From the IMG/VR virus record IMGVR_UViG_2681813236_000014, positions 1-11,010 of that record: a stretch of DNA of 11,010 bases. One strand, given 5' to 3'. The notes under the pieces are model-generated. The model did no database searches. It was not told the DNA's origin and saw only the letters and a list, made by a program, of their open reading frames with translations. Position numbers and translations under genes: made by a program. Positions 723 through 7,717 of the stretch are shown here, piece by piece (positions within the stretch are counted from its first letter, which is position 1; every line of letters begins with the position of its first letter). The DNA comes from a virus (Duplodnaviria; Heunggongvirae; Uroviricota; Caudoviricetes).

Positions 723-1943
723 GTGGGAAAAGCACTAAACAAACTGAGCGATTCGACGTTAAAAAAATTGGCGGCTGTCCAGGCAGAAAAAGAGCGTTTT
801 TACTCCGACGGGGGCGGGCTGGAGATTAAACACTCAAAGGGCGGCAAATTAACCTGGTATTTCCGGTACCGAACGGGAGGCCGTGAGGTTGCCGCAGAGC
901 GGTTAAAGCTGGGGGCTTACCCTGAATTGTCGCTGAAAGCCGCAAGGGAAAAACGCACACTGTGCCGGGCATGGCTGGCTGAGGGTAAAAACCCCCGTTA
1001 TGAGTTGTGCGCCACAGTACAGGAAGCACTAAAACCCGTTACGGTGAAGGAAGCGATTAACTACTGGCTGGAGGAATACGCGAAGGATAACCGCAAAGAT
1101 TACATAAAGCTGGTGCAGCGTATGGATAAGCACATCATTTGCCATATTGGGGCAATTCCCCTTGATAAGTGTGATACAAGGCAGTGGATCGCATGTTTTG
1201 ACCGCGTACGAAAAAAAGCACCAGTAGCAGCGGGCCATGTCATGCAGACATGCAAACAGGCGCTAAAGTTTTGCCGCAGGCGGCGCTACGCGTTTAGCAA
1301 CGCCCTGGACGATTTGATCGTTACTGATGTGGGTAAGAGAGCAGAAATCCGCGAGAGAGTGCACAGCAACAGCGAACTAAAAGAAATTCTACGCGCTATT
1401 GATGGTGATGTGTTCGCTCCCTATTACAGTGCGTTAATGCGCTTGTTAATTGTGTTCGGGTGCAGAACGGCAGAGATCAGACTTTCAGAGATCAAAGAAT
1501 GGGACCTGAAAGAAATGTTGTGGACAGTGCCAAAAGAGCACAGCAAAACGAAGGTAACAATATTCCGACCTATTCCTGATGGTATTTTGCCGTTCATTCA
1601 GAAGCTGGTGGAGCAAAACGCACACACTGGGTTATTACTCGGCGAACTGAAAAAAGATACCACGGTGGCGCAATATGGACGAAATGCGCATAAGCGGCTT
1701 AAGCAGGAACACTGGACGCTGCATGATTTCCGACACACGTTTACAACTATGCTGAATGATTTAGGTGTCGATCCGCATATCGTGGAGCACATCACAGCGC
1801 ATCAGATGCCAGGTCAGCAAAAAACCTATAACCATTCACGCTATTTGCAGGCGAAACGGGACGCACTGAATCTATGGGTTGAGCGTCTTGATATGATTGC
1901 AGGATATAATGAAAATATTGTGATATTGAGAGGGATACAATGA
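723..1943 (+). CDS. int: Tyrosine recombinase, P4-type integrase (406 aa, GTG start)
   Basis: N-terminal arm-binding pattern (DGGGLEIKHSKGGKLTWYFRYR); catalytic-region motifs GCRTAEI, HDFRHT and a C-terminal Tyr (KTYNHS); RBS AAGAGGA 7 nt upstream; adjacent to the insertion junction. Confidence 0.9.
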   Translation: MGKALNKLSDSTLKKLAAVQAEKERFYSDGGGLEIKHSKGGKLTWYFRYRTGGREVAAERLKLGAYPELSLKAAREKRTLCRAWLAEGKNPRYELCATVQEALKPVTVKEAINYWLEEYAKDNRKDYIKLVQRMDKHIICHIGAIPLDKCDTRQWIACFDRVRKKAPVAAGHVMQTCKQALKFCRRRRYAFSNALDDLIVTDVGKRAEIRERVHSNSELKEILRAIDGDVFAPYYSALMRLLIVFGCRTAEIRLSEIKEWDLKEMLWTVPKEHSKTKVTIFRPIPDGILPFIQKLVEQNAHTGLLLGELKKDTTVAQYGRNAHKRLKQEHWTLHDFRHTFTTMLNDLGVDPHIVEHITAHQMPGQQKTYNHSRYLQAKRDALNLWVERLDMIAGYNENIVILRGIQ

Positions 1944-2794
1944 CGAAAAAAGTAAATAGTAAAAAAGATTTACCAAAGTCATTTGATTTAGGCAAATATG
2001 ATTGCCTAGAAAACTTGTCGGATAAAGATCTATTTCGCCAATTATATTGGCGACAAGATGATTTAACAATGAAACATTCTGAGATGCCTGAATATGGATT
2101 TATGTTTGGTGCTGAATACCCGTTGCATAATAATTACGGGGATCCATTTGGAGAGCTGAAAGAAGACGATTGGTTTTGTGATAAACAAAAAGAATATGAC
2201 CATAAAGTGCAACCGAAGTTAATTGAGCTAAGTTATGATGATGGAATTAAACCTGTAACAAGATTTGATATATCAATGATTAATAAACTGACTGCGGAAA
2301 GAGGATATTGGAAGGATAAACCAATCATCATAGATAATGAGATGGTTGGAAGTTTAATATCAGAAGATAATGGGATGTTTTGGGCTGTGATGCGTGAACC
2401 AGTGAATCTCCTTTCTGATACATTAGATAATATGCTTGTTTCTGTTGACTTACTACATAACAGAGATGATGAGTTGATTGAAGCGTTTACAAAACTATTA
2501 CCAAAATGGCGTAGTGAACTTTCAATTGTTGAGCCAGACAAACCAATTGCAGGAAGTTGGGAGAGCATACGACGTAAAATTATTGATTATAAGATAATCC
2601 CATTAATTGACTTATTATCTTGGGAGTTGTCTACAGATAGAAAAATTTCATTAGGGGTGCTTGCCGTATCTTTGTATCCTGATGGTGAAAAGGACACCTT
2701 TGCTATTGCTCAGACTGTAAAACCCTTCTTAGAAAAAATAATGCGCAGCGATTCTTTAGAAAAAATAAGAAAAATTTTATCTAATGAAAATTAA
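1940..2794 (+). CDS. Hypothetical protein, AT-rich cargo gene (284 aa), function unknown
   Basis: Long ORF with start overlapping the int stop (ATGA), RBS AGAGGGA. Markedly lower GC than flanking int and alpA. No motif I can assign. Confidence 0.7.
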   Translation: MTKKVNSKKDLPKSFDLGKYDCLENLSDKDLFRQLYWRQDDLTMKHSEMPEYGFMFGAEYPLHNNYGDPFGELKEDDWFCDKQKEYDHKVQPKLIELSYDDGIKPVTRFDISMINKLTAERGYWKDKPIIIDNEMVGSLISEDNGMFWAVMREPVNLLSDTLDNMLVSVDLLHNRDDELIEAFTKLLPKWRSELSIVEPDKPIAGSWESIRRKIIDYKIIPLIDLLSWELSTDRKISLGVLAVSLYPDGEKDTFAIAQTVKPFLEKIMRSDSLEKIRKILSNEN

Positions 2795-2897: not shown

Positions 2898-3122
2898 ATG
2901 AATCAAAATACACAATTTCAATCACTAACAGATCGCGTAATTCGTGAGGATGAATGTCGTAAGTTAACAGGCGTCAGCCGTACTACACGCTACGAACTGG
3001 AGAAGAAAGGGGGCTTTCCGTCTCGCCGTAATCTTGGGGGGCGTTCTGTAGGCTGGTTGCTTTCCGAAGTTATGGACTGGGTGCAAAGCCGTGACCGCGT
3101 TAATTCAGGTAAGGCAGCGTAA
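2898..3122 (+). CDS. alpA: AlpA-family transcriptional regulator / excisionase-like (74 aa)
   Basis: HTH-containing small protein (LTGVSRTTRYELEKKGGFPSRRNLGGRSVGWLLSEVMDWVQS) typical of AlpA family; RBS GAGGG upstream; standard position after int in P4-like and PICI elements. Confidence 0.8.
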   Translation: MNQNTQFQSLTDRVIREDECRKLTGVSRTTRYELEKKGGFPSRRNLGGRSVGWLLSEVMDWVQSRDRVNSGKAA

Positions 3123-3140
3123 AGGGGAGCATATGACATA

Positions 3141-3168
3141 TAAAACAAAGGCGACCGGGGGCGGTCGC
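3141..3168 (-). terminator. Putative intrinsic terminator for the leftward regulator operon
   Basis: Perfect 8-bp GC-rich stem GGCGACCG/CGGTCGCC (3149-3156, 3161-3168) with 4-nt loop. On the minus strand it is followed by a U-rich run (complement of aaaacaaa, 3141-3148); no T-run on the plus strand. Confidence 0.5.
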
Positions 3169-3236
3169 CAATGGATACACACTAAACTTGAACGCATCGC
3201 CAACAATGCCACATTTGCGGCTGGTGGGCAATGTGA

Positions 3237-3416
3237 TCAGTCAGATTTGGTTCGTTCCAAGGTTTGCAACGAGAGCTTTTTCCTGTGCTCTTTAAGGAAT
3301 TTCTCAAGAGCAAACGAACAAGGTGCGAATCTTTCTGATTCATGTTCATGCGCTATATTTTTGCGTCGTCTCTTACGAGTTGGTGATGGTGTTTTGGTTG
3401 ATTCTGTGTCGCTCAT
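3237..3416 (-). CDS. Possible small basic protein (59 aa), below the ORF-track cutoff
   Basis: Manual translation of the minus strand gives MSDTESTKTPSPTRKRRRKNIAHEHESERFAPCSFALEKFLKEHRKKLSLQTLERTKSD with an AGGA RBS 6 nt upstream; sits between the RHH gene and the minus-strand terminator. Hand-derived, so coordinates could be off by a few nt. Confidence 0.3.
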   Translation of the reverse strand: MSDTESTKTPSPTRKRRRKNIAHEHESERFAPCSFALEKFLKEHRKKLSLQTLERTKSD

Positions 3417-3473
3417 GGTGCTGTCCTGTAAAGCAATGCGCCTGCGTTCCTCAAACTATGGCGCTGATAGTGG

Positions 3474-3779
3474 CTATTCCTGCTCTTTGACCTTGCGTCG
3501 CTGGAGTTCTTCACGCGCGACGGTGACGAGTTGCCCGATCTCCTCGGCGGCTTTGACTCCGATTTTTTCCACCTGCGCTAGGGCATCGAGCGAAGAAACC
3601 AGGAGGTTTTCTCCGCTTCCTTCTGCCTGGCGGCGGGCGATTTCACCGCGCATGGCGGTTACTATGAATCCGGCGTTGCTTTCACCGTCCAGTTTTACGG
3701 ATTCCATGCCTTCAATAACATCATGCGGGATCCGAGCTGTCAGTGATTGTGATTTTGCGTTTTTTGAACCTGTAGCCAT
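3474..3779 (-). CDS. Putative ribbon-helix-helix (CopG/Arc-like) DNA-binding regulator, 101 aa; candidate island repressor
   Basis: Strong RBS GAGAGGA 6 nt before the ATG at 3779 (the ORF-track start at 3794 is a TTG without RBS). N-terminus SLTARIPHDVIEGMESV fits a beta-strand/helix RHH pattern. Divergent from the pri operon across an operator-rich region. Confidence 0.6.
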   Translation of the reverse strand: MATGSKNAKSQSLTARIPHDVIEGMESVKLDGESNAGFIVTAMRGEIARRQAEGSGENLLVSSLDALAQVEKIGVKAAEEIGQLVTVAREELQRRKVKEQE

Positions 3780-3800
3780 CTGTAATCCTCTCAATGAAAG

Positions 3801-3877
3801 TGTAAGACAATATACACATAAAAAGTCTTACATAAAAGCATTGACATGTAAGCCACCTATAAATAAAGTTACTTACA
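3801..3877. promoter_or_regulatory. Divergent promoter/operator region: two TGTAAG-N19/20-CTTACA inverted-repeat operators plus rightward promoter (-35 TTGACA 3841-3846, -10 TAAAGT 3864-3869)
   Basis: Seen directly: TGTAAG at 3801-3806 and 3847-3852; CTTACA at 3827-3832 and 3872-3877. The second pair overlaps the promoter elements. Confidence 0.5.
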
Positions 3878-3975
3878 CCTTGTTAATGCAAGGTGCAGAA
3901 ACGACGAAACCCCGCACTGTAGGAGCAGTAACGGGGCTTCTAACCACCAACGATAGCAAGATTATCGAGGCAGCT

Positions 3976-4179
3976 ATGAGAAATCATACCATACACCCGC
4001 AAGGGCGGGACTCGTACAACCTGAATAAATACATCTGGCGTTTTATCGCCCTGAGCACCGCACAACCGCGCGTGATTCACATCGTGGCCACCAGCGAACA
4101 GGAAGCACGCCAGCAATCCCCGGCTGGCTGCGTGATGGTATTCGCCGCCCGTATTCGTCAGGGGGTGTGCCATGCCTGA
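3976..4179 (+). CDS. Small protein (67 aa), first gene of the rightward operon; possibly Icd-like cell-division-inhibitor family (weak recollection)
   Basis: First in-frame ATG after the promoter, RBS GAGG; MRNHTIHPQGRDSYNLNKYIWRFIALSTAQPRVIHIVATSEQEARQQSPAGCVMVFAARIRQGVCHA. The rest of the 362-aa ORF-track frame upstream is antisense to the RHH gene and not credible. Confidence 0.5.
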   Translation: MRNHTIHPQGRDSYNLNKYIWRFIALSTAQPRVIHIVATSEQEARQQSPAGCVMVFAARIRQGVCHA

Positions 4180-4498: not shown

Positions 4499-4798
4499 AT
4501 GAGAACGTATTTATCTGGCTTGACTGCCAGCGGTTATGCACACCCCCAAATTATCCCCGGCGCTATTTATCTGGATAAGAACGGTAACAGAGTAACGGTA
4601 AAAGAACTGATGTTTGACCGTGTGTATTTTATCCGTGATGGCTATTCATTTCTTAGTTCGCTGAACGTGGAGATCTTTATTAGCAGATTCAGGCGGGAAA
4701 TCCCGCTTTCCAGAAATAACCATGTGTCATGTATGGATGTTGATAAAAAACTACAGGAACTAAAAAACATGATTGCCGCGTGGAGAGAGCAGAAATGA
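4499..4798 (+). CDS. Hypothetical protein (99 aa)
   Basis: Stop overlaps the primase ATG at 4795 (ATGA), suggesting translational coupling; no recognisable motif. Confidence 0.55.
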   Translation: MRTYLSGLTASGYAHPQIIPGAIYLDKNGNRVTVKELMFDRVYFIRDGYSFLSSLNVEIFISRFRREIPLSRNNHVSCMDVDKKLQELKNMIAAWREQK

Positions 4799-6612
4799 AA
4801 AAAGCGCCAAATTTAAAACACCAGCCGCGTGACAAAATGACGGAAGTCATCATTTTTGCGGGTAGTGATGCGTGGGCACATGCGAAACAGTGGCAGGAAC
4901 AGGACGGGCGACTGGCTGGCGATAACGTGCCACCTGTCTGGCTTGGAGAGCAACAACTTGCCGAACTGGACAACCTGCAAATCGTACCGGACGGACGCTA
5001 TCGCGTGCGTCTCTATCAGGCGGGGTTATTGCGGCCGGGGCTTGTTAATACCATCGGGCAGAAACTGGCAGTGGCAGGTGTCAGGGATGCTGATTATTAC
5101 CCTGAAGGAATGCACAGCCAGAAACGGGAGAACTGGCGCGAATATCTGGAACGTGAACGGGCAGAGCAGGCGGAAAAGAAAAAGGTAGTTGAACTGCCTG
5201 TAAAGAAAAAAGAGCGGGTAAAAGACGATAACGCGTCATCACTGGCGCTTAACCAGATGGGAGCAAGTCAACGCGGCGAAGTTCTCCTGGCACATTATGG
5301 CGGTGAACTGGCGATTCATGCTGACTCTGACACTGTTCACCATTACAACGGCGTTGTATGGGAGCCAGTACAGGATAAAGAATTACAGCGAGCTATGGCA
5401 CAGATTTTCATTGATGCGGAGATCAGCTATTCGCAGAACGCCATTAAATCGGCGGTCGATACCATGAAGTTAAGTTTGCCTGTAATGGGGAATACAGCCC
5501 GTAACCTGATTGGATTCAGTAACGGGGTATTTGATACCAGAACAGGTAATTTTCGGGAGCATAACAAAAACGACTGGTTGTTAATTGCCAGTGAATTACC
5601 TTTCAGCCCACCAGCAGAGGGGGAAACGCTGGCAACACATGCGCCGAATTTCTGGAAGTGGTTACGCCGTTCGGTGGCTGAGAATGACCGCAAGGCGGAT
5701 CGCGTACTGGCTGCATTATTCATGGTGCTGGCGAACCGGTACGACTGGCAGTTATTCATTGAGGTAACAGGTCCAGGGGGAAGTGGTAAAAGCGTGATGG
5801 CGGAGATTTGCACCATGCTGGCGGGTAAGGCCAACACAGTATCGGCAAGCATGAAGGCGCTGGAAGATGCAAGGGAACGCGCGTTAGTGGTTGGCTTTTC
5901 GCTGATTATCATGCCGGATATGACCCGCTACGCTGGTGATGGGGCAGGGATTAAGGCTATTACAGGCGGTGACAAGGTGGCAATTGACCCGAAACACAAA
6001 GCCCCCTACTCAACGCGTATTCCGGCAGTAGTGCTGGCGGTTAACAATAACGCCATGTCATTCAGTGACCGCAGCGGGGGGATCTCACGTCGTCGGGTGA
6101 TATTCAATTTTTCGGAAGTTGTACCGGAGAACGAACGTGATCCAATGCTGGCGGAAAAAATAGAAGGTGAGCTGGCGGTAGTGATTCGCCATCTGCTTAC
6201 ACGGTTTGCTGACCAGGACGAAGCCAGACGCCTGTTATATGAGCAGCAGAAATCTGAAGAAGCACTGGCGATAAAGCGAGAGGGGGATTCGCTGGTGGAC
6301 TTCTGCGGCTATCTCATGGCGTCGGTAATGTGTGATGGCCTGTTAGTGGGTAATGCTGAAATTGTGCCATTCAGCCCACGCAGGTATCTCTATCATGCCT
6401 ATCTGGCTTATATGAGGGCACATGGGTTTGGTAAACCTGTAACACTGACGCGCTTCGGTAAAGATATGCCGGGGGCAATGGCGGAATATGGCAGGGAGTA
6501 TATGAAACGGAAAACGAAGCACGGTTTGCGTTCAAACGTGACACTGACGGAGGAATCAGAAGACTGGATGCCATCATGTGTATCGGTCACTAATGACGAT
6601 AGCAAAAATTAA
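4795..6612 (+). CDS. P4-family primase/helicase (replication initiator, pri-rep), ~605 aa
   Basis: Walker A GPGGSGKS (5769-5792) in the C-terminal helicase-like domain; large N-terminal domain; iteron origin immediately downstream. Start chosen at the ATG at 4795 (RBS GGAGAG, ATGA overlap) rather than the GTG at 4780. Confidence 0.88.
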   Translation: MKKAPNLKHQPRDKMTEVIIFAGSDAWAHAKQWQEQDGRLAGDNVPPVWLGEQQLAELDNLQIVPDGRYRVRLYQAGLLRPGLVNTIGQKLAVAGVRDADYYPEGMHSQKRENWREYLERERAEQAEKKKVVELPVKKKERVKDDNASSLALNQMGASQRGEVLLAHYGGELAIHADSDTVHHYNGVVWEPVQDKELQRAMAQIFIDAEISYSQNAIKSAVDTMKLSLPVMGNTARNLIGFSNGVFDTRTGNFREHNKNDWLLIASELPFSPPAEGETLATHAPNFWKWLRRSVAENDRKADRVLAALFMVLANRYDWQLFIEVTGPGGSGKSVMAEICTMLAGKANTVSASMKALEDARERALVVGFSLIIMPDMTRYAGDGAGIKAITGGDKVAIDPKHKAPYSTRIPAVVLAVNNNAMSFSDRSGGISRRRVIFNFSEVVPENERDPMLAEKIEGELAVVIRHLLTRFADQDEARRLLYEQQKSEEALAIKREGDSLVDFCGYLMASVMCDGLLVGNAEIVPFSPRRYLYHAYLAYMRAHGFGKPVTLTRFGKDMPGAMAEYGREYMKRKTKHGLRSNVTLTEESEDWMPSCVSVTNDDSKN

Positions 6613-7003: not shown

Positions 7004-7717
7004 TTAGTTAGTTTTGAAAAATTTATTGAATAACTCTAAGCTTTCAGGATGTATATATTGAGTAGGGTAACTGATACGTTGTGAGCGTCCAATTTTTATT
7101 GTGTTTTTTTTCGTCTTCCCAAAAAATAGATTCTTCCATGTTAAAATGTTTCCGTGATTATATTTATTGTCTTTTAATCGCTTTTCCAAATAACCATCTG
7201 TGATTTTATATTTATGTGGCGGTACATTCCTTGAGTGCTCAATTTTCCGTAATTCTACTTCTAGCATATCTATTAGCTCACCTTTAGGGGTTTTGAGTTG
7301 ATAATTTAGTAAGCGGCAGTATCTGCGTAATTCCCATACAGTTCTATCTAATGTAATAATTTCAAACCCATTAGTATACATGACTTTTTGGAAGTATCTA
7401 TTTGGTCCTTGGTCATTTAGATACTCTATGAAATATATGCTTTTATCACTCAGATCTAGTTTAATATATGGAATATCATTAATTTTTTTAATTCCTGCAA
7501 CAAGATCATGTCCAATATTTTTAACAGGGATTCTATTAAAAATAAGAATGCATTTTATATATTTTTCAATTGCTTGTTGAGACATCCATAAAAATTGGAA
7601 AGGAAGATTGTTTTTAAAGCAAATACGAGCAGTTAGATAATCTTGATCAGCCATGTCTCTGAAAGATCTTTTAGCCGCATTATTCAGAAAAATTTTTTGA
7701 GTATCAGTAAGTTCCAT
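7004..7717 (-). CDS. AT-rich cargo protein with HEPN-like N-terminal domain (237 aa); candidate RNase-type defense/abortive-infection effector
   Basis: RBS AGGAAG; N-terminal helices with HEPN-like pattern (AAKRSFRDMADQDYLTARI...QQAIEKYIKCIL...NIGHDLVAGIKKI); roughly 30% GC by eye versus ~50% in flanks; opposite strand to surrounding island genes. Confidence 0.7.
   Translation of the reverse strand: MELTDTQKIFLNNAAKRSFRDMADQDYLTARICFKNNLPFQFLWMSQQAIEKYIKCILIFNRIPVKNIGHDLVAGIKKINDIPYIKLDLSDKSIYFIEYLNDQGPNRYFQKVMYTNGFEIITLDRTVWELRRYCRLLNYQLKTPKGELIDMLEVELRKIEHSRNVPPHKYKITDGYLEKRLKDNKYNHGNILTWKNLFFGKTKKNTIKIGRSQRISYPTQYIHPESLELFNKFFKTN

Follow-up and report, generated by a model that had tools for sequence, protein, structure and literature searches.

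Gram-negative phage-inducible chromosomal islands (PICIs) have been described as transcribed only rightward, with an unclear global repressor and an induction logic that is a mystery, while in Gram-positive PICIs, such as the Staphylococcus aureus pathogenicity islands (SaPIs), a leftward master-repressor operon (Stl/Rpr) diverges from xis-pri-rep (Fillol-Salom et al. 2018, PMC6092414). AlpA activates a reporter placed after alpA (PMC6092414). Here we analyse a leftward gene cassette in the window, an 11,010-nucleotide (nt) stretch of viral DNA (IMG/VR record IMGVR_UViG_2681813236_000014). Judged by its genes, the element in the window is a capsid-forming PICI (cf-PICI), a phage satellite of Escherichia coli, and not a prophage. 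The cassette comprises a gene for a probable ribbon-helix-helix (RHH) protein and, behind it, a 59-codon open reading frame (ORF), ORF59, which had been noticed earlier from the letters of the sequence without database searches (the sequence-only reading). The best explanation, which we consider likely, is that ORF59 is the translated last cistron of the RHH operon in this satellite.

Several immunity regions of phages offer points of comparison. In P22 immI, the RHH protein Arc is encoded by the first gene of the arc-ant operon, and Mnt is encoded divergently. In the cI-rexA-rexB operon of lambda, accessory genes are co-transcribed with the prophage repressor. In P1 immI (c4-icd-ant) and in P4 immunity, transcription reaches the downstream genes or stops short of them depending on the translation of a leader ORF. 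For P1, icd is apparently required for the expression of ant (PMC8201110).

The cassette resembles the SaPI module in being a leftward operon headed by a putative DNA-binding protein and divergent from the replication operon, with repeats over the promoters and diverse repressor alleles. Unlike in SaPIs, the candidate repressor is a small and probably Arc-like RHH protein, not of the Stl type, and the operon points toward alpA and the integrase gene (int), ends before them and lies entirely antisense within a rightward open frame. Shared with P22 immI would be an Arc-type RHH gene as first cistron, a second gene after it and divergent promoters with operators, but the second gene of P22 encodes an antirepressor of 300 amino acids (aa), to which the much shorter ORF59 product is unrelated, and the match to Arc is weak. 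As with lambda rex, a gene not needed for repression would ride on the maintenance transcript and be made in the quiescent state; ORF59, however, is far smaller, and is neither known nor predicted to act in exclusion or defence. As in P1 immI and P4, an Icd-like ORF heads the operon, and the frame upstream is linked to it by fusion or a short gap, as expected if ribosomes protect the transcript. In contrast to P1 and P4, no C4- or CI-like RNA was found here with Rfam, and the leader frame of 220-560 codons runs antisense through the repressor cassette. In a literature search of incomplete coverage, which is no proof of novelty, we found no publication in which Gram-negative PICIs are described with a leftward cassette, an RHH repressor or an antisense leader ORF.

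ORF59 runs on the minus strand from an ATG at 3416 to a TGA at 3239-3237, and its product is MSDTESTKTPSPTRKRRRKNIAHEHESERFAPCSFALEKFLKEHRKKLSLQTLERTKSD. The sequence-only reading had described a basic minus-strand ORF with an AGGA ribosome-binding site (RBS) and an RKRRRK stretch; this description is borne out, and a recomputed translation agrees. Residues 13-20 read TRKRRRKN, and the product contains 8 K, 7 R and 3 H (15 K/R in total) against 9 D/E. The CAGG of the RBS and the start ATG are invariant in an alignment of 45 related sequences. An ORF of this size is commonplace, as 3 kb contain 32 ORFs of 30 aa or more, and a terminator scan gave 2 sites against 2.0 expected from shuffles. The 59-codon ORF and the hairpin behind it are therefore not beyond chance when taken alone. 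We judge both to be real because of comparative evidence, namely frame-specific purifying selection, in-frame indels, a constant position and compensatory changes in the terminator stems.

Loci were gathered from a viral collection (76), from metagenomes (80) and from a few genome records, in addition to the window. In the resulting set of 157 sequences, for which the core peptide motif of the family served as the search filter, ORF59 is intact in all 157 (51 distinct nucleotide sequences), with a length of 48-66 aa. The pairwise ratio of non-synonymous to synonymous change (dN/dS) in the ORF59 frame is 0.29 overall and 0.17 in the core (codons 25-45), in a sample whose most distant sequences share 58-60% identity; for the neighbouring RHH gene the value is 0.34. 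Four of the five other frames over ORF59 give values of 0.74-1.09, while the antisense shadow frame gives 0.43. Because this frame has third codon positions in common with ORF59 and is a real competitor, substitutions were sorted by their effect in both frames, as synonymous (S) or non-synonymous (N), with the ORF59 frame named first. For 168 parsimony-inferred substitutions mapped on the tree, the rates per mutational opportunity are 0.41 (SS), 0.51 (SN), 0.17 (NS) and 0.15 (NN). The rate thus follows synonymy in the ORF59 frame and is indifferent to synonymy in the antisense frame. Discordant changes are silent in ORF59 in 19 of 28 cases against 41% expected (p = 0.004), replacements are milder in its frame (mean BLOSUM62 0.10 versus -0.75 antisense), indels keep the frame, and third-position changes cluster in the invariant peptide core. 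The pattern of substitutions indicates that ORF59 is protein-coding and under purifying selection in its own frame. Conservation of the frame and codon-level selection across related islands had been proposed as a check by the sequence-only reading, and both favour the ORF.

The same data bear on the alternative that ORF59 is untranslated, and that the stretch is kept for the rightward ORF or as RNA or DNA, such as a structured 3' untranslated region (UTR), a small RNA (sRNA) of the repressor transcript or a Chi site. This would fit the unusually even nucleotide conservation from the end of the RHH gene to the terminator, which includes the non-coding parts, as well as the strong fold after the ORF59 stop (z = -5.3 for the 3' UTR as a whole), the open antisense frame and the lack of annotation of identical copies in RefSeq. 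It does not fit substitution rates that track synonymy in ORF59 but disregard it in the antisense frame, third-position changes concentrated in the peptide core, in-frame indels, or a peptide motif kept by homologues at 39-46% identity, and the stretch matches no Rfam family. We regard this alternative as very improbable. A known sRNA or C4-like RNA was also considered and rejected; Rfam returned nothing at the gathering score and two chance-level hits with E near 1.

By profile comparison, ORF59 is a member of an existing family without assigned function, PHROG 21027 (E = 5.2e-15, 56.5 bits; residues 5-46 aligned with positions 4-45 of a profile of 65). ERFAPC-FALEKFLKE forms the conserved core, while the N-terminal Arg/Lys tract is only semi-conserved. 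Distant members (39-46% identity) keep the motif F/Y-x-P-C-x-F-A-L-E-x-F-L-K. Homologues form 29 clusters in a single-sequence search and 95 in a profile search, all from Escherichia or Shigella. ORF59 is carried by 1477 of 5426 complete E. coli genomes (~27%) and is present in 1 of 185,579 species representatives. A HMMER search of 1.84 billion representatives gave 10 matches, all from the same narrow family or frameshifted or fused copies. No match was obtained with tblastn against 50,697 GenBank phage records, which excludes ORF59 from the genes of P4 and other deposited phages. Named relatives are NCBI 'hypothetical protein' clusters such as WP_157918692.1. The identical copy in E. coli Ecol_224 is unannotated in RefSeq, but elsewhere homologues are annotated as hypothetical proteins, among them a 57-aa one in XH992. 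Taken by itself, ORF59 is a modest annotation gain, a small protein under selection and apparently real, which about a quarter of sequenced E. coli carry.

The leftward unit ends in a stem-loop at 3169-3150, GGCGACCG-CCCC-CGGTCGCC, with 8 bp (7 of them G-C) and a loop of 4, followed by the T-run TTTGTTTTAT (3149-3140). The perfect 8-bp hairpin with a U-run claimed by the sequence-only reading is thus present as described. The stems of relatives differ in sequence yet pair (GGCGACC/GGTCGCC, GGCCACC/GGTGGCC and GGCGGCTCC/GGGGCCGC), and a T-run follows each. Since the stem shows compensatory changes, we take it for a working element; on this comparative evidence the hairpin and U-run are a conserved, covarying intrinsic terminator that closes the leftward unit. 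There is no U-run after the hairpin on the plus strand, so the terminator should stop leftward transcription only. Only 18 nt separate the alpA stop from the end of the T-run, and leftward transcription would end at the terminator, shielding the convergent alpA.

Upstream of ORF59, the RHH gene is a neighbour at fixed distance. The spacer from its stop to the ORF59 start measures 57 nt in 74 of 74 loci, a multiple of 3 that holds the two genes, which share a strand, to one reading frame, and the terminator scan called no terminator between them. This layout points to ORF59 as the second and last cistron of a leftward operon headed by the RHH gene, with the two genes likely to be co-transcribed. 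The two-gene regulator operon of the sequence-only reading stands in so far as a gene of regulator type lies upstream and the terminator closes the unit; nothing shows ORF59 itself to be a regulator. The spacer also contains a hairpin that is weak in the window (z = -0.7) and 10-11 bp long and GC-rich in most other alleles, with wobble changes. It could be an attenuator or an element of processing or stability. It occupies the corresponding position in all related loci, and its loop contains GAGGAA.

The upstream gene passes the NCBIfam model NF041551 (YlcI/YnfO) with 71.4 bits against a cut-off of 30; our literature search gave nothing useful on YlcI/YnfO function. With a profile of 16 alleles, the best match in the PDB is P22 Arc (structures 1b28/1arq), with a weak score (E = 0.015). 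The AlphaFold2 model of the protein has an extended segment (11-18) and helices at 19-28 and 35-54, followed by a long helix, and database names for relatives are Arc-like or CopG family. An Arc-like RHH fold is probable but not proven, because Foldseek returned nothing significant with the model (the RHH protein ParB, 3no7, at E = 9.3). In the substitution test over this gene, the RHH frame is the selected frame (p = 1.6e-7). The alleles are highly diverse, with lengths of 59, 63, 65 or 101 aa, and differ in the presumed DNA-reading strand residues. What distinguishes the 101-aa from the 59-aa form is an insert of 42 aa (AEGSGEN...REELQ), which separates the second helix from the shared basic C-terminus (RRKAKEQE). 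The insert is modelled by AlphaFold2 as one long helix and is possibly an oligomerisation module.

In the region between the RHH gene and the divergent icd-like gene, TGTAAG(A/C)C occurs four times, forming two inverted pairs at a distance of 46 bp. The repeats overlap a rightward promoter-like site (Table 1). In loci with another RHH allele, this place is occupied by different repeats: TGTGCGCACA, TGTAAT/ATTACA and TCGGTGTGTTTCA. Because the repeats change with the RHH allele, the pair behaves like an immunity-type repressor with its operators. The RHH protein is therefore the candidate repressor of the divergent icd-primase operon, and would probably act by binding the inverted repeats that overlap its promoter. 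The leftward Arc-like repressor and ORF59 operon with its allele-specific operators would be a concrete candidate for the maintenance module missing from Gram-negative PICIs.

Table 1 Coordinates of the cassette and of neighbouring features in the window
Feature	Position	Strand	Description
DUF6387 gene	1940-2794	+	between int and alpA
alpA	2898-3122	+	Phage_AlpA PF05930, E = 4.8e-16; convergent with ORF59
Rightward frame	3133-4179	+	antisense to ORF59, the RHH gene, their terminator and the control region
Terminator	3169-3140	-	hairpin and T-run
ORF59 3' UTR	3236-3170	-	invariant 14-nt block, then variable hairpin
ORF59	3416-3237	-	59 aa, PHROG 21027
Shine-Dalgarno-like AGGA	3427-3424	-	7 nt before the ORF59 ATG
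Spacer	3473-3417	-	RHH stop to ORF59 start
Spacer hairpin	3464-3438	-	
RHH gene	3779-3474	-	101 aa, first cistron
Divergent control region	3780-3975	both	between the RHH gene and the icd-like gene
Inverted repeat pairs	3801-3808/3825-3832 and 3847-3855/3872-3881		within 3797-3881; TGTAAGAC/GTCTTACA twice
Promoter-like site	3841-3869	+	TTGACA-17-TAAAGT
icd leader	3876-3985	+	three hairpins, z = -3.5
icd-like gene	3976-4179	+	Icd-like protein
Primase	4795-6612	+	DNA primase
237-aa ORF	7004-7717	-	between primase and capsid genes

The icd leader folds into three hairpins and has no Rfam match. On the minus strand, its central hairpin is followed by UUUCGUCGUUUCU (3890-3950), resembling a terminator. 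This could be the end of a leftward antisense transcript that starts opposite icd, from a promoter-like site at 4239-4212.

While the alleles of the RHH gene, the operators, Icd, the primase, AlpA and the integrase are swapped around it, ORF59 stays 58-100% identical. Owing to this constancy across allele swaps, ORF59 is not the specificity partner of the repressor, and probably lies outside the DNA specificity of the repressor. Its persistence amid allele exchange and its restriction to Escherichia/Shigella suggest, with low confidence, an accessory protein on the maintenance transcript with a constant target in Escherichia or in a helper phage. The RHH-ORF59 transcript would be made in the quiescent, integrated state, and ORF59 may act on such a constant host or helper-phage factor by way of an amphipathic helix that is invariant (FAPC-FALEKFLKE), while its basic N-terminus would contribute affinity for nucleic acids or electrostatic affinity.

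The main rival for the function of ORF59 is a role as a modulator of the switch, either as a co-repressor, an anti-repressor or a Cro-like partner, acting together with the RHH protein or on the divergent promoters. The sequence-only reading was of the same kind, and the predicted position of ORF59 in the operon of the candidate repressor would suit such a role, as would a small, basic and predicted helical product capable of binding nucleic acids or proteins. A modulator would, on the other hand, have to be reconciled with the lack of covariation between ORF59 and the RHH or operator alleles, with a basic tract that is not kept in distant members (e.g. P0033), and with switches that lack ORF59 in other genera. 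We consider this role unlikely.

It is scarcely credible, in our judgement, that the RHH gene and ORF59 make up a type II toxin-antitoxin system in which the RHH antitoxin precedes a small toxin. The same ORF59 stands behind unrelated RHH alleles, including 59-aa forms that leave no room for a toxin-binding tail; it is predicted to be all-helical, searches of Pfam, NCBIfam and PADLOC assign it to no toxin family, and the RHH cassette is found without it in Klebsiella, Yersinia, Photorhabdus, Serratia and Pectobacterium. What would speak for such a pair is the gene order and sizes, which are like those of RHH-antitoxin operons, the name 'RelE' that one source gives to the homologue P0051, and weak matches of some RHH alleles to RHH families of the HicB or PSK type.

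Several observations weigh against ORF59 as a translated cistron with a function of its own in the operon. ORF59 is absent from the RHH-cassette islands of Klebsiella, Yersinia, Photorhabdus, Serratia, Edwardsiella and Pectobacterium and is thus dispensable for the core switch. No promoter of the leftward operon passed the consensus scan, and the GC-rich spacer hairpin could act as an attenuator of read-through into ORF59. Changes at codon positions 1 and 2 of ORF59 are about equally frequent (38 versus 44). No family in Pfam, NCBIfam or PADLOC covers ORF59, leaving its function to rest on context; a profile search of PDB sequences gave chance-level matches only, and Foldseek found no significant match in the PDB for the AlphaFold2 model, which has helices at 12-29 and 31-58 with moderate confidence (mean pLDDT 68). 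The N-terminal third evolves fast, and C-terminal tails vary and are frameshifted in some database copies. These last features would also fit a young, lineage-restricted gene that emerged within the 3' UTR of the repressor gene and is almost or entirely without function, its apparent constraint being mostly hitch-hiking in a recently spread module. The confinement of ORF59 to Escherichia/Shigella, while the RHH gene ranges over Enterobacterales, is consistent with such an origin. A dN/dS of ~0.3 overall and 0.17 in the core, measured on sequences as distant as 58-60% identity, and an intact ORF in every locus examined argue against the lack of function, and this possibility seems improbable to us. 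We retain ORF59 as the translated last cistron of the RHH operon.

On the opposite strand, the sequence-only reading had noted a long and implausible plus-strand ORF. The ORF (362 aa, 3091-4179) is indeed antisense to ORF59, and substitution tests over ORF59 and the RHH gene find its amino-acid sequence unconstrained; implausible as a protein, it is nonetheless open far beyond chance and holds an operon-like position between alpA and icd. Its ATG at 3133 lies 10 nt past the alpA stop, behind AGGGGAG, and in the window it is in frame with the icd-like gene. The third codon positions of this rightward frame coincide with those of ORF59 and the RHH gene. As a shadow frame of these genes, part of its length is explained, but not all. 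Over 3133-3975, it has 0 stops, compared with 16 and 20 in the other two plus frames, and in the parts of this interval that are non-coding on the minus strand the numbers are 0 versus 9 and 13. Shadow frames of other window genes contain ~3 stops per 100 codons.

The openness extends to relatives. Of 94 distinct E. coli variants, 78 are free of stops in this frame between the ORF59 stop and the start of icd, while the other frames average 11.6 and 14.2 stops; the frame is fused with icd in 71 variants, and among the 16 variants outside the 78 its last stop lies at the icd start in 11. The control regions of nine divergent classes contain 2 stops in this frame versus 34 and 30 in the others. 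In ~10 of 21 other start contexts, the first ATG lies at most 20 nt from the stop of the upstream gene. The frame is also open in Klebsiella, Yersinia, Photorhabdus, Serratia and Pectobacterium and partly in Edwardsiella. In the other genera it comprises 237-558 codons, overlaps or abuts the stop of alpA or antA, and ends 10-14 nt before icd or is fused with it. At an Erwinia locus without a called rightward gene upstream of the cassette, it has 7 stops.

Two other explanations were rejected. The rightward ORF is not the real gene with ORF59 and the RHH gene as its shadows, according to the substitution tests. Neither is its openness a by-product of the minus-strand proteins, since the minus-strand non-coding parts are also free of stops in the rightward frame; synonymous reshuffling of the minus-strand genes was uninformative here, with a probability of 0.2-0.7 per gene of having no rightward stop. 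Openness this far beyond chance indicates that selection keeps the frame open while leaving the encoded protein free to change, which would be an unusual signature. We propose that ribosomes have to travel from alpA to icd on read-through transcripts, for which P1 immI and P4 immunity would be precedents among relatives.

A broader model can be put forward tentatively. It is possible that the RHH-ORF59 cassette is the maintenance-repressor module of Gram-negative PICIs, set antisense inside an open rightward leader ORF, and that the two together form a switch of convergent transcription and translation. Translation of the leader would let AlpA-dependent read-through cross the cassette without premature, possibly Rho-dependent, termination, would deliver ribosomes to icd, and would silence the convergent repressor operon. 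On this view ORF59, specific to Escherichia, would have originated within the 3' UTR of the repressor, or have been inserted there, opposite a frame that is forced to stay open.

The overlapping-strand layout accounts for an inconsistent treatment of the three ORFs in RefSeq, where ORF59 is omitted, called hypothetical, or replaced by the antisense ORF. In O157:H7 strain 611 (locus L080, 2289-3032), the antisense frame is annotated as the 247-aa hypothetical protein WP_001304194.1 and both minus-strand genes are omitted. In ATCC 25922 (locus L079, 2367-2846), the antisense stretch is a truncated 'Icd-like' pseudogene.

The chromosomal context of the element is given by E. coli Ecol_224, which is 100% identical to the window over 1.4 kb around ORF59 and in which the island adjoins rcnR. 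Its annotation lists a tyrosine integrase, a DUF6387 protein, an AlpA-type regulator, a YlcI/YnfO protein on the opposite strand, an Icd-like protein, a DUF4222 protein, a DNA primase and a fusion of a ClpP-like protease with the major capsid protein. We assign the element to the cf-PICIs because an integrase, AlpA, a primase and its own capsid genes are found together in a short island beside rcnR. The term 'lysogen', used in the sequence-only reading, is accordingly loose for a satellite whose genes (integrase, AlpA, primase and protease/capsid fusion) are not those of a prophage. The earlier observation itself is confirmed and its interpretation, largely right, is partly supported.

The 237-aa minus-strand ORF and the DUF6387 gene occupy spots where satellites often bear accessory or defence cargo. 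Neither protein has a match among the PADLOC defence models.

The invariant 14-nt block in the 3' UTR of ORF59 reads ATTGCCCACCAGCC and is complementary to a Chi site, GCTGGTGG, which the plus strand carries at 3220-3227. This block is the only invariant block of the 3' UTR and is kept in all E. coli sequence classes, with variable flanks on both sides. Klebsiella also has a Chi site ~80 nt past the RHH stop. In the window there are 7 Chi sites versus 0.25 expected from shuffles; 5 lie on the plus strand (3220-3227, 1604, 6291, 9123 and 10765), and the others, at 4088 and 5608, on the minus strand. Many E. coli matches to the region start at window position 3219, beside the Chi site, which suggests a recombination junction at this position.

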